Shown: positions 2,409-26,583 of the stretch, in pieces
Numbering within the stretch: the stretch's first letter is position 1
How the letters are laid out: each line of letters opens with the position of its first letter
Source: Methylophilaceae bacterium
GTDB lineage: Bacteria > Pseudomonadota > Gammaproteobacteria > Burkholderiales > Methylophilaceae
Length of the DNA stretch: 64,000 bases
Assembly: GCA_043774925.1 (NCBI GenBank)
Contig: JAYVSZ010000015.1
Span: 5,031-69,030 of the forward strand
Reading direction: 5' to 3'
The notes under the pieces: model-generated
Seen by the model: only the letters and a program-made list of their open reading frames with translations
Databases searched by the model: none
What the model was told of the DNA's origin: nothing
Made by a program: the position numbers and the translations under genes

Positions 2409-4085
2409 TTAGTTCAGCCCTGTGATATTGCCGTGCGAGTCAATATCAATGCGACTGCTGGCAGGGGTCTTGGGTAAACCGGGCATCGTCATCATGTCGC
2501 CGCAAATCGCCACAACAAAGCCCGCACCGCGCGATAAACGCAATTCGCGCACGTGTAGCGTGTGGCCGCTGGGTGCACCACGCAATGTCGGGTCGCTAGA
2601 AAACGAATATTGCGTTTTGGCGATGCAAATGGGGAACTTACTGTAGTGCGCCTCCAGCGATTTAAGCTGAGAAGCCGCATCAGCGCTTAATTCTACGTTT
2701 TTGGCACCATACATTTTCGTCGCAATCGTTTCGATTTTTTTCAACAAGCTATCACTATCATTGTAAAGCAGCTTGAATTTGGATTTTTTTTGTTCAATTT
2801 CCGCGACGACCGCGTGTGCCAAGTCAGTCGCACCGGCGCCGCCTTCTGCCCAATGTTTGCAGATAATCGCTTGGCTACCAAGTCGCTCGACTTCCTTTTT
2901 GAGTGTAGCAACTTCCAAGTCGGTATCTTGCGTAAAATGATTAATTGCAACGATCACTTGCAAACCAAAATTATCATGACAATTATTAATATGTCGTTTT
3001 AAATTACTGATTCCATTAATTAAATAATCTATATTTTCAACACTTAATTCTTTCAAATCTGCACCGCCGTGATACTTCAGTGCGCGAATCGTCACCACAA
3101 TCACTACCACTTCTGGCTGTAGATTGGCCTTGCGACACTTAATATCGATAAATTTCTCTGCGCCCAAATCGGCGCCAAAACCTGCTTCGGTAATCACGTA
3201 ATCCGCTAGTTTTAACGCCGTTTTAGTTGCCACTACCGAGTTGCAACCGTGCGCGATATTGGCAAATGGACCGCCGTGAATAATCGCTGGCGTGTGCTCT
3301 AAAGTTTGCACCAAATTCGGCTGAAATGCATCTTTGAGCAAAGCCGCCATCGCGCCATGTGCCTCTAGCAGCCGCGCCGTTATTGGCTCTCCAGCCATGC
3401 TCTTTGCCACTTGAATTTCACCTAAGCGCGTTTTTAAATCGTCTAAATTTTCTGCCAAACAGAAAATCGCCATCACTTCCGACGCTACTGTGATGTCAAA
3501 ACCAGTTTCGGTTTCATGGCGCTGCTGATGAAGCGTCGCGCGGCGCAAAGCACGGTCGTTCATATCCATGCAGCGCCGCCAAGTAATTGTTTTTAAATCA
3601 ATATTGAGTGAATTTCCATGGTAAATATGATTATCCACCAGCGCCGCAAGCAAGTTATTCGCCGCCGTAATCGCGTGGAAATCGCCCGTAAAATGTAAGT
3701 TGATATTTTCCATCGGTATCGCTTGCGCGTAACCGCCGCCCGTCGCGCCGCCTTTAATGCCAAAAACTGGCCCAAGTGAAGGTTCGCGCAGGCAAATAAT
3801 GGCTTTTTTTGCTGATTTTTCTTTTTTAAATAGGTGATTCAGCGCGTCTGCAAGGCCAATCGTGGTGGTGGTTTTGCCTTCGCCTGCAGGTGTTGGGCTA
3901 ATGGCGGTCACCAGCACCAATTTTCCACTAGGTTTTTTTTGAATGTTACGCAGACAGTCTGCGCTCAATTTCGCGATATGATGACCGTACGGAATAAGCG
4001 CATCCGCAGTAATGCCAAGCGTTTTGGCAACCGTTAGTATTGGTTTTAACTCTGCCGCCTGCGCAATTTCAATATCGCTGAGCAT
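2409..4085 (-). CDS. fhs: formate--tetrahydrofolate ligase
   Basis: 558 aa. MLSDIEIAQ start, [16 protein letters not shown]-loop, [19 protein letters not shown] and full-length FTHFS-like sequence. Confidence 0.95.
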
Positions 4086-16873: not shown

Positions 16874-17056
16874 TTACTTTGAAACAGACTTTACTTCATC
16901 TGGGCTTGCGCGCTCTAGAATGCCCTCGGCAATGATGGCCTCAAACAAAGCCTGCACGCGGCGATCATAATTGTCATCCAATACTCTGGCGTTGCTTGCC
17001 TGATAGTTGCGCACCGCTTCACGTTCTAAAATTGCAGAATCCACTAATTTATTCAT
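16874..17056 (-). CDS. small cytoplasmic orphan protein (60 aa from ATG 17056; track start 17068 is TTG)
   Basis: ORF with a GGAGA Shine-Dalgarno 5 nt before ATG 17056. A predicted sigma70 promoter and two GGGAW-N3-WTCCC palindromes lie upstream. No recognisable domain. Confidence 0.4.
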   Translation of the reverse strand: MNKLVDSAILEREAVRNYQASNARVLDDNYDRRVQALFEAIIAEGILERASPDEVKSVSK

Positions 17057-17099
17057 GCTCTTCTCCAAACCACTTAACTTTAAACCCGTTTTTTATTTG

Positions 17100-17164
17100 G
17101 GATACTTTCCCGTTAAGCAGAACAATAAAGCTACTTAAATGCCGTGTCAAGGGAATTTATCCCT
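17100..17164 (-). promoter_or_regulatory. predicted promoter (-35 TTGACA 17146-17151, -10 TATTGT 17123-17128, 17-nt spacer) flanked by two palindromic operator-like sites
   Basis: Read on the minus strand: GGGAAAGTATCCC (17100-17112) and GGGATAAATTCCC (17152-17164). Same motif as at 25536 and 26106/26138. Confidence 0.45.
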
Positions 17165-18415: not shown

Positions 18416-19639
18416 TTAAGGCAGCGCGTGAAAGCCTTCTACACGCTCTTTATCGCCAGCCGCATATTTTTTAGAATTTTTATCGGTTCTAAAAATAATG
18501 GGTTGTGATTGAATTTGCGGATTTTTAGAGGCTTCAATCGCTTCATCAATCAAGTGGCGATTAGGCGATTTACTACAAACAGGGTCTGCGCTTTCTGCAT
18601 CGCCAGAAAGTAAAAACGCTTGGCAACGGCAGCCGCCAAGGTCGTTATCTTTTTCGCTACAACTGCGGCAAGGCTCTTTCATCCAATCTTGGCCGCGGTA
18701 CTTATTAAAGGCCGGGCTTTCTTTCCACGCCCATTCCAAGCCGTTTTCACGCACATTGGGGAATGTAATGCCAGGTAAAACGCGTGCGGAATGGCAAGGC
18801 AACACATCGCCATTGGCGGTCACAATCATAAACACTTCGCCCCAGCCATTCATACATTTTTTTGGGCGGTCGCCAAAATAATCTGGCACCACGAAAAACA
18901 CTTTCATTTTATTGCCAACGCGCGCGCGGAAGGCATTTGTAATGCGCTCGGCTTCGTCAATTTGCTCTTTTAATGGCATCAGTTGGCTTCTGTTCACCAA
19001 ACTCCAACCGTAATATTGCGTATTTGCCAGCTCCACATAATCCGCGCCAAGCGCTTCAGCCATCTCGAGAATTTCTTTAATATGGCCAATGTTATAGCGG
19101 TGAATCACCACGTTCAGCACCATCGGGTAGCCGTGATTTTTAATCATGGCGGCCACTTTTTTCTTTAATTCAAACGTTTTGGTATTGGTAATAAAGTTAT
19201 TAATTTCTTCGGTAATGTCGTGCATAGAAAGCTGAATATGATCCAAGCCGCCTTCTTTAAAGGCTTGAATACGTTTTTCGGTTAAACCGACGCCTGACGT
19301 AATCAAATTGCTGTAATAGCCAAGTTTTTTCGCCTCGATGACAATTTCTTCAATATCGTCACGCAGCAACGGCTCGCCGCCAGAAATGCCCAGCTGAATC
19401 GCGCCTTGCTTGCGTGCATCTCGCAATACCTGAATCCATTGCTCGGTATTCAGTTCGTTTTGTGTGTGTTTGTCGTAATCGGTCGGGTTGTAGCAAAAGG
19501 CGCAATGCAGCGGACAGCGATAGGTAATCTCCGCCAGCAACCACAGCGGTTGCGTGTGCGTGATATTGGCTGCAACGCCGTTATTCTGCGCTTGCACAGC
19601 CTGTTGTACCGCAGACTCGCCTAAAGAGTTTTGTGTCAT
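18416..19639 (-). CDS. pqqE: PQQ biosynthesis radical-SAM protein PqqE
   Basis: LLAEITYRCPLHCAFCYNP (CxxxCxxC), SPASM-type C-terminal cysteines. Last gene of the pqq operon. Confidence 0.95.
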   Translation of the reverse strand: MTQNSLGESAVQQAVQAQNNGVAANITHTQPLWLLAEITYRCPLHCAFCYNPTDYDKHTQNELNTEQWIQVLRDARKQGAIQLGISGGEPLLRDDIEEIVIEAKKLGYYSNLITSGVGLTEKRIQAFKEGGLDHIQLSMHDITEEINNFITNTKTFELKKKVAAMIKNHGYPMVLNVVIHRYNIGHIKEILEMAEALGADYVELANTQYYGWSLVNRSQLMPLKEQIDEAERITNAFRARVGNKMKVFFVVPDYFGDRPKKCMNGWGEVFMIVTANGDVLPCHSARVLPGITFPNVRENGLEWAWKESPAFNKYRGQDWMKEPCRSCSEKDNDLGGCRCQAFLLSGDAESADPVCSKSPNRHLIDEAIEASKNPQIQSQPIIFRTDKNSKKYAAGDKERVEGFHALP

Positions 19640-19648
19640 TTGCTGCTC

Positions 19649-19945
19649 CTAATTTATTTTGCGAATCCAAGCTTTACCAAAAGCCATATCAAACATGCCC
19701 AAAATATCTTTTTCTATGGCTTCGGCGTCTGGAAATTTGGCTTTAAGTGCCGCCACAATCTCGCCCACTGTCGCTTTGCCGTCTACCAATTTAATCACTT
19801 CGCCCGCGCCGCCATGTAGTTTGACCATGCCTTCTGGAAAAAGTATCACATAACTTTGCTGCGCTTCTTCCCACTGAAAGCGGTGATGCAGTGCGATGGC
19901 GTAAATGTCACTGCTTTTTATATTGTCTTCTATTTTATTTTCCAT
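19649..19945 (-). CDS. pqqD: PQQ biosynthesis peptide chaperone PqqD
   Basis: 98 aa. FQWEEAQQSYVILFPEGMVKLHGGAGEVIKLVDGKATVGEIV is the typical PqqD pattern. Lies between pqqC and pqqE. Confidence 0.9.
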   Translation of the reverse strand: MENKIEDNIKSSDIYAIALHHRFQWEEAQQSYVILFPEGMVKLHGGAGEVIKLVDGKATVGEIVAALKAKFPDAEAIEKDILGMFDMAFGKAWIRKIN

Positions 19946-19963
19946 GTATGCCTTAATACTTAT

Positions 19964-20029
19964 TGTAGGAGCGCAATTTATTGCGCGATTATCTCTACAT
20001 TATTTCGCGCAATAAATTGCGCTCCTACA
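19964..20029. repeat. 25-bp perfect inverted repeat with 16-nt loop in the pqqC-pqqD spacer
   Basis: TGTAGGAGCGCAATTTATTGCGCGA (19964-19988) and its exact reverse complement (20005-20029). Each arm contains the sub-palindrome GCGCAAT-TT-ATTGCGC. Confidence 0.85.
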
Positions 20030-20034
20030 TAAAA

Positions 20035-20793
20035 TTAATCAATCTTAATCACTGGCTGGCGAAGGTAATCGCGCCCTTCCACTTTAATTTCCGTCGAAGC
20101 GAGCATGATCGAATCGGCAATCACCCATAAAACATTCAACTTAAATTGCAAAATATCCAGCGCACGCATTTGCATCTCGCGGCTTGTACTAAAATAATCC
20201 AGCGTGACGCCCAAGCCTTGCTCCACGTCGCGGCGCGCTTCGGTGAGGCGCTTTTTAAAGTAGCTTAGCCCTTCTTCTTTAATCCACGGGTACATTTGCG
20301 GCCAAGAGCTAATGCGCTGCTGATGAATGTGCGGCGCGAACAGCTCGGTGAGACTAGAGCACACGCTTTCTTGCCACGGGCGTTGTTTGGCGAAGTTAAT
20401 ATAAGCATCTACCGCAAAGCGCACGCCAGGGCTCACCATTTCTAGCGAAGTCACTTGCGCGCGCGTCAGCCCCACCGCGTTGCCAAGCTGAATCCATGCC
20501 TCAATGCCGCCCACATTTTCACCCACGCCGTCATGGTCGGTGATGCGCACAATCCATTGTTTGCGCACTTCAACATCGGGGCAGTTGGACAAAATCGCGC
20601 CATCTTTCATGGGAATGGCGATTTGATAATAAAAACGATTCGCCACCCAACTTTGCAGCTGCTCTTTGCTCAATTGGCCTTCGTACATCATCACATGGAA
20701 CGGATGATAAATGTGGTAGCCCTTGCCTTTTTCGCGCAGTTTTTCTTCAAATTCGGCGCGCGACCAAGGCGCTAATGGTGTTGCTTTTGTCAT
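20035..20793 (-). CDS. pqqC: pyrroloquinoline-quinone synthase PqqC
   Basis: 252 aa. [25 protein letters not shown] and WIQL motifs. Confidence 0.95.
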
Positions 20794-20915
20794 CGTTTTA
20801 AACCTTCAAATTATCCTATGTTGTTACCATGCCTCTGCAAGCCAATATCCACGCGGTTCTCAGAGGCATTATTTGCGCTCGAGCTTATATAACTTAAAAA
20901 TATCGATTTTTTTAC

Positions 20916-21833
20916 TTATAAGATGATGTCCATACCGTCATACGCGACTTCTATACCATGCTGAGTTAGAATCGCGCGCTCGGCAGAATCTTCGCGCAAA
21001 ATTGGGTTGGTGTTGTTGATATGAATCAATATTTTTCTGACATCACCAAATTTATCGAGTTCCTCGATCATGCCGCCCTCGCCCGACTGCGGATTGTGGC
21101 CGATGCTGCGCGCGGTTTTCGTCATTAAACCCATGTCAGCCATTTCAGTGTTGGTCCAAAACGTGCCATCCACCATAATGCAGTCGGCTTGATTCATCAG
21201 CACTGGCAAATGTGGCTCAATTTCGGCCAAGCCTGGCGAATACCAGCATTTTTTGCCAGATGAAATTTCTTCAATCAGCACGCCAATAGTATCACCGGGC
21301 TGCGGGTTGTTGCGGTGCGGAGAATAAGGCGGTGCGGCGCTTTTAAGCGCAACAGTGGTAAAGCGCAAATTCGGCACATTGGGGATTTCAAAGCTTGTTT
21401 TGCCGTCTATCGGCACTTGGTGGTAATTAATGCCGCAATAATGGCCGAGAATATTCAGCACTTGGTTGCCCGTCGTCAGGTCTTCATAGACCATATCCGT
21501 GCAGTAAATTTCGCGTTTTACTTTACCCTCACGTAGCATAAACAAACCTGTCGTGTGGTCAATTTGCGCGTCAATTAGCACAATCGCTTGAATGCCAGAA
21601 TCGCGAATATTTCTGCTTGGTTGCAAAGGCGCAAAATCTTGAATTTGTTGCAATACGTCGGGCGAAGCATTAAACAGCACCCAATCTACGCCGTTACCGC
21701 TGACGCAAATGGAAGATTGTGTGCGTTTGGTGGCTTTAATAGTACCTTTACGCAGCCCATCGCAATTGGGGCAATTGCAGTTCCATTGCGGGAATCCGCC
21801 ACCCGCGGCAGCGCCTAGTACGTGTATGTGCAT
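20916..21833 (-). CDS. pqqB: PQQ biosynthesis protein PqqB (metallo-beta-lactamase fold)
   Basis: MHIHVLGAAAGGGFPQWNCNCPNC is the canonical PqqB N-terminus. The track's longer ORF (to 21938) runs through the pqqA terminator. Confidence 0.93.
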   Translation of the reverse strand: MHIHVLGAAAGGGFPQWNCNCPNCDGLRKGTIKATKRTQSSICVSGNGVDWVLFNASPDVLQQIQDFAPLQPSRNIRDSGIQAIVLIDAQIDHTTGLFMLREGKVKREIYCTDMVYEDLTTGNQVLNILGHYCGINYHQVPIDGKTSFEIPNVPNLRFTTVALKSAAPPYSPHRNNPQPGDTIGVLIEEISSGKKCWYSPGLAEIEPHLPVLMNQADCIMVDGTFWTNTEMADMGLMTKTARSIGHNPQSGEGGMIEELDKFGDVRKILIHINNTNPILREDSAERAILTQHGIEVAYDGMDIIL

Positions 21834-21940
21834 GAGATTCTTTAGAATGTTTAATGAATGCTGAATTTTACTCTTTAACGAGTAAAATACGGATGTAAAA
21901 AACTGTGTATTAAGTTTAAATAGCCGCTTTTTATACAAAA

Positions 21941-21976: not shown

Positions 21977-22048
21977 TTATTTGTTCATTACGTACATTGT
22001 TACTTCAAAGCCAAAACGCATTTCAGTAGCTGCTGGAGTTGTCCACAT
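21977..22048 (-). CDS. pqqA: PQQ precursor peptide PqqA (23 aa; below ORF-track cutoff)
   Basis: My translation is MWTTPAATEMRFGFEVTMYVMNK, with the conserved E-x-x-x-Y (EVTMY) cross-link residues. AAGGA Shine-Dalgarno. Immediately upstream of pqqB. Confidence 0.9.
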   Translation of the reverse strand: MWTTPAATEMRFGFEVTMYVMNK

Positions 22049-22166: not shown

Positions 22167-23024
22167 TTAAAAGTAATACTTAAGGGTCAGGCCGCCACCC
22201 ACATCTGGGTTGGCATCGCTAAGACCGCCATAAAGCACGGCACTGAGCTTGTAGTTGTTATTAATATAATGAGAGCCATAAATTGATAGCTCTTGCGGTT
22301 TTGGCGAGCCGCTCACAGAGGCCGTTGCCCAGTCGTAAGATACGCCAACTTCGGTATCTTTAGAAAAATTATAGCCGCCGCCTAATGAGCCATAGACCAC
22401 ATTCTTGTAATTTACGCCGCTGGGCTCACCCAGAAACTTGTAACCCAAACCCAGCGAGGCGTACATTGGGCCAAAGTTCTTATCAATATTGGTTTGAATA
22501 GCGTAATCGTTCTCGCCAGAGCCCAAGCCTCGTGTATCGCTGGCAGTGCCAAACTTGATGCGCCCAGTGAAATCAACAACAAAGCCTTGGTCACCGCCAT
22601 CATAAGCTTGATATGTAGCAGCCGCAACAATATCACCTAAACCAGATTCGGTTGTTCTTACATTCGTTGCTGTAGTTGTTGAAGGTGTAGTTGTAGTAAT
22701 TGTTTGTGGGTTTGTACATGCGCCAGTACCACGTTTGCGGCAATCTGCCCCCGTGCTGATAGTTGAAGTTGAGCTTGAGCCACTAAAACCGCTTGGTACA
22801 ACGCTGCCATTACCAGTCACACGAATCCAAGGAACAGTCACTTTATAGGTGAACGCCCCCGTTCGATAAGACGCAGCTAAGGGCACATACCAAACATCTG
22901 TAGAATCACTTGTGCCATATTTGCCGGTTGAGTAATCAGCCCCTATAGAAGCACTAAAGCCATCAGCGTAAGCATTTGTTGCTAGTAAAGTTGCAGCTAT
23001 CAATAGCTGTTTGATTAAACGCAT
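22167..23024 (-). CDS. outer-membrane beta-barrel protein (resembles the MetA-pathway/'transporter' OMP family)
   Basis: Signal peptide ending AYA. WYVPLAASYRTGAFTYKVTVPWIRVTG motif, alternating beta pattern, terminal KYYF. Inserted Thr-rich loop with two Cys. Confidence 0.55.
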   Translation of the reverse strand: MRLIKQLLIAATLLATNAYADGFSASIGADYSTGKYGTSDSTDVWYVPLAASYRTGAFTYKVTVPWIRVTGNGSVVPSGFSGSSSTSTISTGADCRKRGTGACTNPQTITTTTPSTTTATNVRTTESGLGDIVAAATYQAYDGGDQGFVVDFTGRIKFGTASDTRGLGSGENDYAIQTNIDKNFGPMYASLGLGYKFLGEPSGVNYKNVVYGSLGGGYNFSKDTEVGVSYDWATASVSGSPKPQELSIYGSHYINNNYKLSAVLYGGLSDANPDVGGGLTLKYYF

Positions 23025-23041: not shown

Positions 23042-24601
23042 TTATTTATACTTACCGCTACTACTGCCGCCGCCAGAACCGCCGCCACCAGGATGACTTG
23101 AGCCGCCGCCAGAGCCGCCACCCCCACTAGGGCGACTTGAGCCACCGCCTTGCGAACCGCCTATAGAACTACCGGAAGAGCCGCGTTCGCTAGCACCACT
23201 TCCAGACGAGCCAGTGGAGTCGTGTCCGCTGGCACCACTTCCGCCAGATGAGCCTTCACCAGATCTGCCATTCCCACTCGATGAACTCGATTCTGAAGTA
23301 TCTGAAGCGCCTGACGAACCAGAACTGCCCGACGCGCCTGACGTGTTTTCATTCTTGCCAGAACTGTCACTACCTTGCTTACTATTATCTTTGAATTGAA
23401 TATCAATATCAATACGATTGCCTTTTCTTTCGGATACTTTATCGGTTACCCATTGGCCTTTGTTGTTTCGGCGCAACTCAATTTTTACCAACTTATCTTT
23501 AAAGTTATCAAGTGATTCGCCTTGCGATACGCTCACTTCTGTGCCAGAAATTGATAAATGATTCTGCCCATCTTTGCGCACATAACCTTCCATAATTGCA
23601 CTATCCACAAGGTTTACGACGTTATTAATGGGTTGCGCTTCTATATGACTCGCCTGCAAAGTACCGTTATTCCAGCTACCCGCAACTTGCACCTCACTGC
23701 CCACTTTCACTTTTGCAAGCGTTTGTTTATCTGTCACATTCACTTTTGTGCCATTTACAATAAAGCCGTCGCGCGTCAACCCCGTAACCAAGCCAAGCGT
23801 ATTTGCATTAGCGCCGTCATTCACTAAATCGACCCGTGAAGCCACAATATTGCCATTAGCTAGGCGATAGCCACTTACACGCGCAACCGCATTCGGACTT
23901 GCATTTGCCAATTGACGCACAATGTTTTGATTGACATTTACCGTTTGACCCATCACGTTAATTTGCTGACGGGCAATATCCACGCCCTTAACAGGGCCGC
24001 TCACCGCGTTAAATAAGCCGATTGCACGCGCATGCAGCACACCGTTTACGCTGTTTACCTTAAGCATCACGGTCTTGCCCACGGCCAGATCTGCCAGTTT
24101 GGCTGTTTTGCCATTGTCGTATATGGGCGTAGCGCTTTCATATTGCACTTCTTCACCGTTTACGCAAATACTAGCAAAACCTGTTACGACGCCCATAATA
24201 CCCACTTCGCCCTCTGCATCTTGAGGTAATAATGCATACTCAGGCAACGAATCACCCGTACCGCCAATGCCGCCGCCTTTTGCAATCGGTGCGCCGGTGC
24301 CAGAAATGCCCCCTGTAGCCACTTTTGCACCTGTACCTGCAACACCGCCTTGAGCGACGGGCGAACCTGTCCCAGAAACGCCACCTTTAGCTACTGAAAT
24401 TCCTGTACCTGCCACACCACCTTCCGCAACAGCAGCGCCAGTGCCAGAAATGCCACCTTTAGCTGGCGCACCTGTGCCACTAATGCCACCGTCTAAACTA
24501 TAAGGATTAATCATGGATGCGGCAGAGCACGCACCTTCGCTACCCGCATGGGCATTAGCAGCAAATAATAAGCTTATGGCAATGATGGCGGCGCGAGGCA
24601 T
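23042..24601 (-). CDS. secreted multi-DUF5666-like (OB-type) repeat protein with N-terminal 12-aa Gly-rich repeats and C-terminal Ser/Gly low-complexity tail
   Basis: Signal peptide ...ANAHA. About 7 copies of GG(I/V)(S/A)GTGxxxAx. About 4 modules of the G.VT....F.VNG..V.V pattern. Last 114 aa are S/G-rich. TAATG overlap with the upstream gene. Confidence 0.6.
   Translation of the reverse strand: MPRAAIIAISLLFAANAHAGSEGACSAASMINPYSLDGGISGTGAPAKGGISGTGAAVAEGGVAGTGISVAKGGVSGTGSPVAQGGVAGTGAKVATGGISGTGAPIAKGGGIGGTGDSLPEYALLPQDAEGEVGIMGVVTGFASICVNGEEVQYESATPIYDNGKTAKLADLAVGKTVMLKVNSVNGVLHARAIGLFNAVSGPVKGVDIARQQINVMGQTVNVNQNIVRQLANASPNAVARVSGYRLANGNIVASRVDLVNDGANANTLGLVTGLTRDGFIVNGTKVNVTDKQTLAKVKVGSEVQVAGSWNNGTLQASHIEAQPINNVVNLVDSAIMEGYVRKDGQNHLSISGTEVSVSQGESLDNFKDKLVKIELRRNNKGQWVTDKVSERKGNRIDIDIQFKDNSKQGSDSSGKNENTSGASGSSGSSGASDTSESSSSSGNGRSGEGSSGGSGASGHDSTGSSGSGASERGSSGSSIGGSQGGGSSRPSGGGGSGGGSSHPGGGGSGGGSSSGKYK
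24254..24490 (-). repeat. in-frame tandem repeats of about 36 nt encoding GGISGTGAPxAK units
   Basis: Protein residues 38-116 form about 7 consecutive 11-12-aa units. Confidence 0.8.
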
Positions 24602-25521
24602 TACTGATCCCCTTTGCTTTTTGCATCGGTATCCGTATGCATCGGCTCGTGGTAAAAATAAATGCCGTAGGTCATGCGCAACTTGGGTTGGGCGGATTGG
24701 CTATCTTCCGCGTGACTATCTGCCACTTTAAACACCTCAGTTAATGTTTTCATGCCTTGTTTCTTCGCAAATTCACTAATTTCCTGAACACTTGCCATGC
24801 TCAGCTCGTCGTAGTACACACAACGCTCAAGAAAGCTGTTTTGTTGACCGAGCATATTAGAAACCGCCGCTTCGGCGTGATCATGCAGATTGTGCCCAAA
24901 GAAAAAGGCTTTTTCTTCAAACCCTTCTTGCGGAATAAACGCATCAGCCATGATATGTACTCTATTTTCTGCATCCACTGTTGCAAAGCCGAGCCGTAAC
25001 CATTCATCTAATACGGCTCTAGGATGAATATCTGTACTGACGCTACGCACCAAGCTTTCGAACGACTCTGTTTCGCCTGCAGAAGCCAACCTAGGTAAAG
25101 CTTTGGGTATGCCCTCTTTATTCAGGTATTTTGAGTCTGAGTTCCACAAAGCCATTATTTGCGAGCCAAGCGAAATATTCTCTGGCACCACCTCACCGAC
25201 CTCAGGCGAATATTCACGCAAACGACGCACATCCTTGCGATGCACGCCGCTAATCAAACTAATACGCGTATCCGTTGGTCGCTTGCCATCAATCATAAAT
25301 TCAGTATCCGACACTTCCACAAAAAGTGTTTTGAGCAAATCAATGGCAAATGTATAGCTTAAATCATTTGCTAGCATCAGCTTAATGAATGGCTTTAGCA
25401 CGCGCTTCATAGCGCTTGCGATTAATAATTGTTTTTTAGAGAAACTGTTTTCCATACTTGAAATAGTTAAGCATTTCACCCTTGAAACCATAGCATAACA
25501 AATAAAGGGATATTTTACCAT
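24601..25521 (-). CDS. orphan cytoplasmic protein with a putative helix-turn-helix (start uncertain: 25521, 25491 or 25455)
   Basis: No signal peptide. RISLISGVHRKDVRRL looks like an HTH. First gene of the operon, divergent from a small secreted-protein gene. I recall similarity to an uncharacterised DUF family (possibly DUF6502) but cannot verify it. Confidence 0.5.
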   Translation of the reverse strand: MVKYPFICYAMVSRVKCLTISSMENSFSKKQLLIASAMKRVLKPFIKLMLANDLSYTFAIDLLKTLFVEVSDTEFMIDGKRPTDTRISLISGVHRKDVRRLREYSPEVGEVVPENISLGSQIMALWNSDSKYLNKEGIPKALPRLASAGETESFESLVRSVSTDIHPRAVLDEWLRLGFATVDAENRVHIMADAFIPQEGFEEKAFFFGHNLHDHAEAAVSNMLGQQNSFLERCVYYDELSMASVQEISEFAKKQGMKTLTEVFKVADSHAEDSQSAQPKLRMTYGIYFYHEPMHTDTDAKSKGDQ

Positions 25522-25528
25522 TTATTTA

Positions 25529-25557
25529 TTGACTTGGGAAATTATCCCGAGTACTCT
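25529..25557 (+). promoter_or_regulatory. predicted sigma70 promoter (TTGACT-17 nt-TACTCT) with palindrome GGGAAATTATCCC in the spacer
   Basis: -35 at 25529-25534, palindrome at 25536-25548, -10 at 25552-25557. The architecture is paralogous to 26099-26127. Confidence 0.45.
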
Positions 25558-25609
25558 GTTGTTTCGGGGATTAAAGTTAATTTATCAAACCTCAATTAGG
25601 AGAAATATC

Positions 25610-25843
25610 ATGTTGAATCAAAAACTATTAGTAGCACTATTTAGCGCTGCACTTGCTTTGGCACCAAGCATCAGTTTTGCGCGTCAAGGCGCTGATGACG
25701 GACCAAACCATGAAGCGAATGAACACGCAGCAGGTCATGAAGCGAATGAACATGCGAGTGGCAATAACCAAGGTGGCGATAAACATGGCAGAAACCGCCG
25801 TGGCCGCGATAAAGATAATGTAATGCCAGTACCAGCACCTTAA
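25610..25843 (+). CDS. small secreted His/Asp/Arg-rich protein (77 aa)
   Basis: AGGAGA Shine-Dalgarno. Signal peptide MLNQKLLVALFSAALALAPSISFA. Mature part RQGADDGPNHEANEHAAGHEANEHASG... The track start at 25529 is a TTG inside the promoter. Confidence 0.6.
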   Translation: MLNQKLLVALFSAALALAPSISFARQGADDGPNHEANEHAAGHEANEHASGNNQGGDKHGRNRRGRDKDNVMPVPAP

Positions 25844-25866
25844 CGCGTCAATTAGTATTAAGTGCA

Positions 25867-25900
25867 ATCCCATCTGCCATTCAGCAGGTGGGATTTTTAG
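25867..25900 (+). terminator. Rho-independent terminator
   Basis: ATCCCATCTGC-cattca-GCAGGTGGGAT (one G-U pair) followed by TTTTTAGTTTTT. Confidence 0.65.
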
Positions 25901-26098
25901 TTTTTATTGTGTGTTTTGTGTCTACAGGCATCCTACTTGTTTTAATTTTTATGTAATTAGCTTAGTAATTTTTCTATATTAATTGACCTTATTTGTCTTT
26001 ACGCCCCAATTAGTACAATTAATCTTCATTTTTCAATGATTTAACTTGAACAAAAACAATTACTTATCAATTTACTTGAATTATTTTCAATTAAACTA

Positions 26099-26151
26099 TT
26101 GACACGGGAATATTTCCCGCTTAATATTCACATCAACGGGAATTAATCCCG
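26099..26151 (+). promoter_or_regulatory. predicted sigma70 promoter (TTGACA-17 nt-TAATAT) with two palindromic operator-like sites
   Basis: CGGGAATATTTCCCG (26105-26119) lies in the spacer. CGGGAATTAATCCCG (26137-26151) lies 9 nt after the -10. Confidence 0.5.
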
Positions 26152-26186: not shown

Positions 26187-26540
26187 ATGAATAGCAAAAA
26201 ATTAGTATTAAGTGCATTAGCAATCGCATTATTGACAACAGCAAGTTTGTCATTCTCACGTGAAGCATCTGAAGGCCCACGCGGTGCAGATCGTATTCAT
26301 AGTGGTACCCATAAAAATAGCGTTGATGCAGATGCTATGATGCTAGCGCGTCGTGGTGCGGATGATCCTGTCCCACATCCACGTGGTGAAGGCGCTGGTC
26401 ACCCTAACAGTGTTGACGTTAACGGTATGATATTAGCGCGTCGTGGTGCAGATGACCCAGTTGGTTCTGAGCGTCCAGGTGAAGTGCATGGACAAAAGCG
26501 CGGCGGTCGCAACAGTGTTGAAATTAGCACTTTAGCCTAA
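26187..26540 (+). CDS. small secreted protein built from three tandem RGAD(D)...NSV(D/E)...LA modules (117 aa)
   Basis: AGGAGA Shine-Dalgarno. Signal peptide ...ASLSFS. DNA-level duplication with a 90-nt period (AGCGCGTCGTGGTGC at 26344 and 26434). Confidence 0.65.
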   Translation: MNSKKLVLSALAIALLTTASLSFSREASEGPRGADRIHSGTHKNSVDADAMMLARRGADDPVPHPRGEGAGHPNSVDVNGMILARRGADDPVGSERPGEVHGQKRGGRNSVEISTLA

Positions 26541-26552
26541 GCCACAAGCAAT

Positions 26553-26583
26553 AAAAAAGCCGCAATTATTTGCGGCTTTTTTT
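26553..26583. terminator. bidirectional Rho-independent terminator (convergent with the DAHP synthase gene)
   Basis: AAAAAA-GCCGCAA-ttat-TTGCGGC-TTTTTTT. Confidence 0.75.

Follow-up and report, generated by a model that had tools for sequence, protein, structure and literature searches.

The DUF6502 locus and its palindromes

The DNA analysed here (the window) is a 64-kb stretch of a Methylophilaceae genome (assembly GCA_043774925.1, contig JAYVSZ010000015.1, positions 5,031 to 69,030). Its feature of interest is a 13-bp palindrome of the pattern GGGAWNNNWTCCC, which is embedded in the predicted promoters of three small genes and of an operon headed by a gene for a DUF6502 family protein. The motif is real, enriched and tightly co-located with DUF6502 across Proteobacteria, and its promoter-embedded layout recurs in several lineages. 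DUF6502 itself is probably a local, autoregulated repressor that binds these palindromes as operators. The features on which the argument is built are listed below; the -35, -10 and +1 assignments are predictions for all promoters.

24601-25455, minus strand: DUF6502 protein of 284 aa, candidate regulator (reading frame open up to 25521)
25507-25519: imperfect putative operator GGGATATTTTACC, one mismatch, covering the predicted -10 in the promoter of the DUF6502 operon
25540 to 25512, minus strand: predicted divergent promoter of the DUF6502 operon, TTCCCA (25540), 17-nt spacer, TAAAAT (25512), with TG before the -10
25529-25557, plus strand: predicted promoter P1, -35 TTGACT (25529-25534), 17-nt spacer, -10 TACTCT (25552-25557)
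25536-25548: putative operator O1 of P1, GGGAAATTATCCC, exact pattern match inside the 17-nt spacer
25566-25570: half-site GGGGA just downstream of the predicted P1 start, right arm absent
25610-25843, plus strand: sp77, predicted secreted protein of 77 aa, rich in His, Asn and Asp and of low complexity
25866-25895: terminator of sp77
26099-26127, plus strand: predicted promoter P2, TTGACA, 17-nt spacer, TAATAT (10 of 12 matches in the promoter scan)
26106-26118: putative operator O1 of P2, GGGAATATTTCCC, about -29 to -17, within the spacer
26138-26150: putative operator O2 of P2, GGGAATTAATCCC, about +4 to +16, its centre 32 bp from that of O1
26187-26540, plus strand: sp117, predicted secreted repeat protein of 117 aa with ARRGADDP...RGG units
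26553-26582: terminator of sp117
17099-17163, minus strand: predicted promoter P3, -35 TTGACA (17150-17145), 17-nt spacer, -10 TATTGT (17127-17122)
17151-17163 and 17099-17111: palindromes of P3, both exact pattern matches, the first abutting the -35 and the second at about +5 to +17
16877-17056, minus strand: orf59, non-secreted protein of 59 aa downstream of P3

The pattern occurs exactly five times in the window, against a mean of 0.07 in dinucleotide-preserving shuffles, none of which contained more than one match (five or more in 0 of 100 shuffles). With up to one mismatch allowed there are 10 copies, against 2.9 expected. All five perfect palindromes and the one-mismatch copy at 25507 are intergenic, and the perfect copies are distributed over three sigma-70-like predicted promoters. 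The four other one-mismatch copies (28439, 44527, 45176 and 56452) lie inside long open reading frames, and their number is compatible with the chance expectation of 2.9. The palindromes at 25536, 26106, 26138 and 25507 and the half-site at 25566, which had been reported in the first-pass annotation of the window, proved correct in position and sequence on re-reading. The three perfect palindromes given there are not the full set, the pair at 17099-17111 and 17151-17163 having been missed together with the third promoter.

The upstream regions of sp77 and sp117 align, as had been claimed before. They have in common TATTGAC(T/A), a palindrome in the 17-nt spacer and a -10 element, and the alignment continues downstream through a CGGG(G/A)A site to TTAGGAGAA(A/T)TATCATG. 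P3 joins the same alignment. It also has ATTTTCAATTAAA...TTGACACGG context in common with P2, as might result from the copying of a P2-like promoter. In the divergent direction, the 25536 palindrome, which is also O1 of P1, contains the predicted -35 of the DUF6502 operon promoter, and the imperfect palindrome at 25507 contains the predicted -10. P1 and the DUF6502 promoter would thus overlap back to back and share operators, with 29 bp between the imperfect site and O1.

Each of the two small genes downstream of P1 and P2 has a signal-peptide-like N-terminus, a strong Shine-Dalgarno sequence and its own terminator, and the two proteins are weak paralogues (BLASTP 31% identity, E 1e-6). None of sp77, sp117, orf59 and the targets in other genomes described below, the Gly/His-rich protein of Pseudomonas included, could be assigned to a Pfam or NCBIfam family. 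His-rich orthologues of sp77 are present at two related loci (L204 and L205). In sp117 and its relatives (L001 9349-9738, L004 and L023) the units are about 30 aa long and consist of a short hydrophobic patch followed by AREASEGPRGxDNERPGDRQRRGG(R); repeats of this type resemble a poly-peptide precursor with dibasic ends.

The DUF6502 gene, described initially as an orphan with a start at 25521, is instead the first cistron of a conserved three-gene operon. Its product matches Pfam PF20112 with an E-value of 6.9e-32, scoring 110.8 bits where the cut-off is 27 and covering profile positions 5-263 of 268. A homologue search gave 2436 proteins. Homologues are 280-290 aa long and align from Met23 of the window reading frame, so the gene probably starts at 25455 rather than 25521. 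The stop codon of the DUF6502 gene overlaps the start of the next gene, and the genes that follow are:

23042-24601, minus strand: operon gene 2, secreted protein of 519 aa with three DUF5666 domains (Pfam PF18914, E 6e-17)
22167-23024, minus strand: operon gene 3, outer-membrane beta-barrel-like protein of 285 aa with a signal peptide
21977-22048, minus strand: pqqA (MWTTPAATEMRFGFEVTMYVMNK), directly downstream of the outer-membrane protein gene
18416-21938, minus strand: pqqBCDE, downstream of pqqA

The DUF5666 protein has about eight N-terminal Gly-rich repeats of 11-12 aa, GG(I/V)(S/A)GTG..., and a long Ser/Gly-rich C-terminal tail; in the orthologues from Pseudomonas the repeats are GGTGGTG and the tail is made of (K/R)VEKVE repeats. 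The available parts of the DUF5666 literature were uninformative. In Pfam the third protein gives only a weak DUF3187 match, and a Methylocystis homologue is annotated as 'outer membrane beta-barrel protein'. The closest genome matches of the window DUF6502 protein come from Methylotenera and Methylophilus metagenome-assembled genomes (MAGs; 62-67% protein identity). Metagenome contigs in ENA with DUF6502 proteins 83-89% identical to it have the same synteny as the window, and the arrangement of the operon beside pqqA is kept in L201 and L204, whose contigs reach past the outer-membrane protein gene. Transcriptional read-through from the DUF6502 operon into pqq is conceivable.

Conservation of the palindrome across Proteobacteria

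The comparative test was based on 80 DUF6502 loci taken from one-genome-per-species contigs (1.34 Mb in total), with proteins 45-67% identical to that of the window and with Methylotenera, Nitrosomonas, Pseudomonas, Aromatoleum, Gallionellaceae and Thiotrichales among the sources. A perfect palindrome is present in 61 of the 80 loci. The 87 perfect copies found there compare with 4.6 expected from a first-order Markov model. The 1.2 kb upstream of the DUF6502 start contain 77 of them, and 44 are at -50 to -200. Among the 19 loci that have no perfect site, 15 carry a one-mismatch copy (at the same upstream position in 13) and the remaining four retain a wTTCCCac half-site. The flanks widen the consensus to about gtGGGAAwwwTTCCCac(g), and spacings of 29-35 bp between palindromes are common. 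The 29-bp site pair in particular is retained in Methylotenera-like loci, where the imperfect site reads GGGATTATTTTCC or GGGATTTTTTTCC.

The layout seen in P1 and P2 is not confined to the window. At 10 sites in other genomes, TTGAC-N2 precedes the palindrome on the strand opposite DUF6502, and nine of these have TAnnnT exactly 3 nt after it. This TTGAC-N2-site-N3-TAnnnT arrangement, which occurs in Methylotenera-like bacteria, Nitrosomonas, Georgfuchsia and unclassified betaproteobacterial MAGs, supports the repressor-type operator geometry suggested in the first-pass annotation. Phylogenetic footprinting in five close relatives (L201-L205, the contigs with 83-89% identical DUF6502) points the same way, the arms being conserved while the surrounding DNA diverges. 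The P2 block is conserved from the -35 through both palindromes in L201, L203 and L204, and the 250 bp upstream have diverged; P1, the arms of whose O1 are conserved in L201, L204 and L205, shows a similar pattern, as does the imperfect site at 25507. Overall the close relatives keep the arms and the promoter hexamers, and the palindrome centres vary. The GGGA half-site of P1 is retained in L204 and L205, with its right arm again absent.

The association extends to Alphaproteobacteria. DUF6502 homologues 37-43% identical to the Pseudomonas protein were found in 76 plasmid records, mostly rhizobial megaplasmids, and six plasmid loci, five of them annotated, were sampled. At all five annotated loci a DUF5666 gene directly follows DUF6502. 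A perfect palindrome lies inside the cluster at five of the six, and the sixth has one-mismatch sites; in Azospirillum the palindrome cgtGGGAAAATTTCCCact is 122 bp upstream of the DUF6502 gene. In Rhizobium megaplasmids (L208 and L212) the DUF6502-DUF5666 pair is located directly after the flagellar hook genes flgE, flgK and flgL, and the palindrome stands in a TTGACA...TATTGT promoter-like context upstream of a gene for an 82-aa non-secreted protein.

The non-operon genes directly downstream of palindromes in these genomes encode mostly secreted low-complexity proteins with 4-15% hydrophobic residues. In Methylotenera-like and other betaproteobacteria (L001, L003, L004, L006, L023 and L032) they are repeat proteins of the AREASEGPRGxDNERPGDRQRRGG type, in Pseudomonas they contain 45% Gly and 10% His with GGEPGDDHGNH repeats, and in a few lineages they are Met/Gly-rich. 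Elsewhere the targets are larger secreted proteins. In Nitrosomonas (L011, L016, L031, L040 and L057), for example, the gene divergent from DUF6502 encodes a secreted, cupredoxin-like protein of about 610 aa with a C-x2-H-x2-M motif (TCSIHPYMFG) and a weak Pfam Copper-bind match (E 0.027). Among the targets, orf59 in the window and the Rhizobium target are small non-secreted proteins. From composition alone, a role of the module in periplasmic cation handling may be guessed at.

These comparisons bear on two readings other than protein binding. The likeness of the promoters could be a by-product of a recent sp77/sp117 duplication, or chance, with no regulatory meaning; the two proteins are indeed weak paralogues and their promoters align beyond the palindromes. 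The motif, however, also stands at non-paralogous promoters (P3 and that of the DUF6502 operon), at 61 of 80 distant loci and on alphaproteobacterial plasmids, against expectations of 0.07 for the window and 4.6 for the 80 loci, and this explanation is in practice refuted. The second explanation is that the palindromes act as nucleic-acid hairpins, for instance as stem-loops that stabilise 5' ends, as attenuators or as terminators. The RNA folding energies of the individual palindromes, -5 to -11 kcal/mol, are what any palindrome gives; two of the palindromes are flagged as weak terminator-like sites, and O2 of P2 and its counterpart in P3 would be transcribed. Most copies, however, precede the predicted start, within the spacer or above the -35, and would thus not be transcribed from these promoters. 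The arms GGGA/TCCC are invariant across three proteobacterial classes, with no compensatory changes, and the centre varies, which is the signature of base-specific protein recognition and not of structure. Rfam gave no match at gathering score in the whole window. A hairpin function is therefore very improbable, and recognition of the palindrome by a protein is the preferred reading.

DUF6502 as the candidate DNA-binding protein

If a protein recognises the palindrome, the question is whether it is encoded in the cluster. When all open reading frames from -3.5 to +5.5 kb were clustered across the 80 loci, only three families were widely common: DUF6502 at 80 loci, the DUF5666 protein, which follows it, at 70-71, and the outer-membrane protein at 59. 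This neighbourhood has no classical transcription factor that recurs with them. The window copies of the DUF5666 and outer-membrane proteins have signal peptides, which leaves DUF6502 as the only conserved cytoplasmic product of the cluster. Moreover, the cluster is found in at least seven unrelated genomic contexts in Pseudomonas, implying that its regulator should travel with it. The suggestion that the divergently transcribed gene encodes the regulator, and possibly an autoregulator, thus gains support from its standing as the only conserved cytoplasmic gene and from the palindrome upstream of DUF6502 in alpha-, beta- and gammaproteobacteria.

A scan of metagenomes for any two palindromes 14-44 bp apart is informative only after filtering for A/T centres and family-type flanks. 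The unfiltered scan was rejected as a specificity test, most of its 120 matches being unrelated pairs of hairpins with G/C centres, similar to repetitive extragenic palindromic (REP) elements, or tandem arrays. Centres of A/T only leave 20 double-palindrome loci, 12 of which have family-type flanks. Nine of these 12 carry DUF6502; of the other three, one carries the gene for the outer-membrane protein, another is a contig of 1 kb and the third (L084) is unexplained. DUF6502 was found at none of the eight A/T-centre loci that lack family-type flanks. The GTAGGCTGGGATGNAATCCCAGC...GCTGGGATTNCATCCCAGCCTAC hairpin pairs in many of the metagenome matches (L099, L104, L110, L112, L124, L126, L136, L138, L159, L164, L192, L196 and others) belong to a REP-like element family unrelated to DUF6502, which shares the GGGAT...ATCCC core by coincidence. 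The unexplained locus L084 (Ga0058701_10027627, GC 0.38) has at 2872-3072 at least five copies of agtGGGAAATTTTCCCact at 30-90 bp intervals, with no convincing open reading frames.

The DUF6502 family, which occurs in alpha-, beta- and gammaproteobacteria, is large, with 4,821 clusters at 50% identity (E <=1e-3), 1,027 of them at E <=1e-30, and its carriers include methylotrophs, nitrifiers, iron oxidisers, Pseudomonas, Aromatoleum and rhizobial megaplasmids. PF20112, which Pfam labels a 'family of unknown function', is matched by each of the 56 aligned relatives, and the relatives are named 'DUF6502 family protein' or 'hypothetical protein'. A literature search for DUF6502 found no paper naming the family. 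An AlphaFold model built from 145 sequences of three clades has a mean predicted local distance difference test score (pLDDT) of 83.4 and a predicted template modelling score of 0.68. It contains two long N-terminal helices, a helix-turn-helix at residues 62-69/73-81 (TRISLISG-VHR-KDVRRLRE), a winged-helix-like module at 94-168 (helices 94-106, 132-139 and 145-155; hairpin 158-168) and a C-terminal helical hairpin. Across 138 representatives, 28-48% identical to the window protein, the best-conserved block, tdSRxsxxTGxHRkdvxrlr, is this predicted basic helix-turn-helix, in keeping with operator arms that do not vary between three proteobacterial classes. Short, non-significant local matches in two Foldseek searches, to BusR, PcaR, MarR and sigma region 4 (E 0.25 to 3, probability <=0.63), suggest helix-turn-helix-like elements and not membership of these families. 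Of two other leads, a match of residues 180-219 to the plant SBP zinc finger (E about 1) was dismissed, and the idea of a metal sensor based on HNLHDH and Cys212 of close relatives remains speculation, only D192-H193 being conserved family-wide.

Several observations weigh against DUF6502 as the repressor of these promoters. No helix-turn-helix model of Pfam or NCBIfam matches it, even when the segment is scanned alone; the helix-turn-helix mentioned in the first-pass annotation thus has a structure prediction and a sequence pattern behind it, and no match to a known family. Searches of PDB sequences with whole-protein and helix-turn-helix-segment profiles gave nothing significant (only two matches, E about 1), a first AlphaFold model from 56 close sequences was poor (pLDDT 68), and Foldseek of the better model against the PDB gave nothing significant either (best E-value 0.55). 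The extended-motif array of L084 has no DUF6502 within its 5.1-kb contig, and the only Rhizobium site lies downstream of the DUF5666 gene, with none upstream of DUF6502. As to the promoters, P1 was assigned by reading the sequence and aligning it with P2 and P3, and its -10, TACTCT, is weak and below the promoter-scan threshold; neither an orf59 homologue nor the P3 sites were found in relatives L001-L006. In other taxa no -35 can be recognised in many of the DUF6502 operon promoters, which may be activated instead.

The lack of significant similarity to a known DNA-binding family or structure, the L084 array and the Rhizobium arrangement would all suit a different reading, in which the operator is real but is bound by a transcription factor encoded elsewhere, DUF6502 being a co-regulated, non-DNA-binding cytoplasmic component of the envelope system. 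This is considered unlikely. The cluster is patchy, and in its Pseudomonas contexts and on alphaproteobacterial megaplasmids alike it always carries the motif; a factor acting in trans would need to be present alongside it in all three classes, alpha-, beta- and gammaproteobacteria. The neighbourhood holds no other conserved gene or classical transcription factor, and the most conserved part of DUF6502 is basic and resembles a helix-turn-helix. DUF6502 therefore remains the favoured candidate for the binding protein.

Proposed regulatory logic and significance

The proposed mechanism starts from the view that the 13-bp palindrome is the core of an operator of about 17 bp, gtGGGAAwwwTTCCCac, which a DUF6502 dimer would bind through residues 62-81, its conserved basic helix-turn-helix. 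In P1 and P2 this operator would fill the 17-nt spacer between a near-consensus -35 and the -10, and at P2 and P3 a second operator would cover about +4 to +17. A protein bound at these positions should exclude or block RNA polymerase, which amounts to repression. With their near-consensus -35 and optimal spacing, P1, P2, P3 and the nine promoters of this layout elsewhere should be active unaided. The sites at 25536-25548 and 25507-25519, lying over the -35 and -10 of the divergent promoter, would let DUF6502 repress its own operon as well, hence autorepression. A signal that releases the repressor would then switch on the small secreted, hydrophobic-poor repeat proteins together with the envelope operon. 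The identity of DUF6502 as the binding protein, the sign of regulation and the existence of an inducer are what we infer from this arrangement.

The sign of regulation could be the opposite, DUF6502 binding the operator and activating or acting dually, either MerR-like from the spacer or from a position overlapping the -35 at operon promoters that lack one. The operon-proximal sites in Pseudomonas, Nitrosomonas and others do lie 6-9 nt upstream of a good -10 and have no recognisable -35, and a site between the -35 and -10 resembles MerR operators, in which the dyad occupies the same place. MerR regulators, however, activate from an over-long spacer of 19-20 nt, whereas P1, P2, P3 and the nine other promoters have a TTGAC -35 and 17-nt spacing; the extra sites at +4 to +17 are roadblock positions, others lie upstream of the -35, and DUF6502 has no Pfam match to the MerR helix-turn-helix or other MerR-family match. 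Activation is thus judged improbable, somewhat more so than a factor encoded elsewhere, and repression by DUF6502 is retained as the explanation of choice.

The arrangement resembles that of tetR and tetA in Tn10, which have divergent overlapping promoters and two palindromic operators. As in TetR/tetO, a local regulator is divergent from its target and two dyads lie about 30 bp apart (here 29 bp, 25507/25536), and with overlapping divergent promoters and common sites one set of operators would repress both directions. Members of the TetR family have an N-terminal TetR_N helix-turn-helix and an all-helical ligand domain of about 200 aa. DUF6502, by contrast, is a protein of about 284 aa with another predicted architecture and no TetR_N domain or TetR fold: at E-values up to 10 only DUF6502 was matched in Pfam, and the Foldseek match to a TetR protein has an E of 1.2. 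Its operator is unrelated in sequence to tetO, and unlike tetR its gene is co-transcribed with structural genes. The arrangement also resembles that of the ArsR/SmtB and CopY autorepressors (arsRBC, copYZAB), whose genes come first in the operon they repress, behind a core promoter overlapped by an inverted-repeat operator. The proteins controlled belong to the envelope or periplasm, and some are rich in His or Met. All of this would have its counterpart in the DUF6502 operon and its targets, with the palindrome overlapping the predicted core promoter. DUF6502 differs from these proteins in having no HTH_5, HTH_20 or other winged-helix family match, and metal sensing by it is a guess. Searches with Pfam, NCBIfam, PDB sequences and Foldseek did not place it in ArsR/SmtB, MarR, GntR, IclR or other winged-helix families.

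In layout and conservation the sites are those of a putative promoter-overlapping palindromic operator, with an enriched dyad within or adjoining predicted core promoters and conservation beside the regulator gene across species (six of six alphaproteobacterial loci have sites). The regulatory logic would be classical, a local autorepressor acting on dyads embedded in promoters, with an uncharacterised protein family in the role of regulator. The first-pass annotation had recognised in the motif no box of a well-known regulator, and no published regulator with this box has been found; the exact motif strings gave literature matches only in a human transcriptome paper. What is new here is the proposed operator, regulon and DNA-binding role of DUF6502.

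A wider reading, tentative and rather less likely than not, is that DUF6502 founds an unrecognised family of sequence-specific DNA-binding regulators with an overall fold absent from the PDB. Its operator and recognition helix would have remained almost unchanged, and it would control a dedicated envelope module, perhaps one that buffers periplasmic metals or cations or answers envelope stress. Besides the DUF5666 periplasmic protein and a small outer-membrane barrel, that module would comprise disordered secreted proteins with a high content of His, Gly or Met, or of Arg together with acidic residues. For a domain so far without a function, the analysis yields a hypothesis open to test, made up of a defined consensus for the operator, a set of predicted promoters, a DNA-binding element that is likewise predicted, and a regulon of few genes. 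As the operator is nearly invariant, scanning with a single position weight matrix should reveal the regulon of any DUF6502-carrying genome, and the regulator would offer a handle for finding the condition that induces its uncharacterised secreted, DUF5666 and outer-membrane targets.

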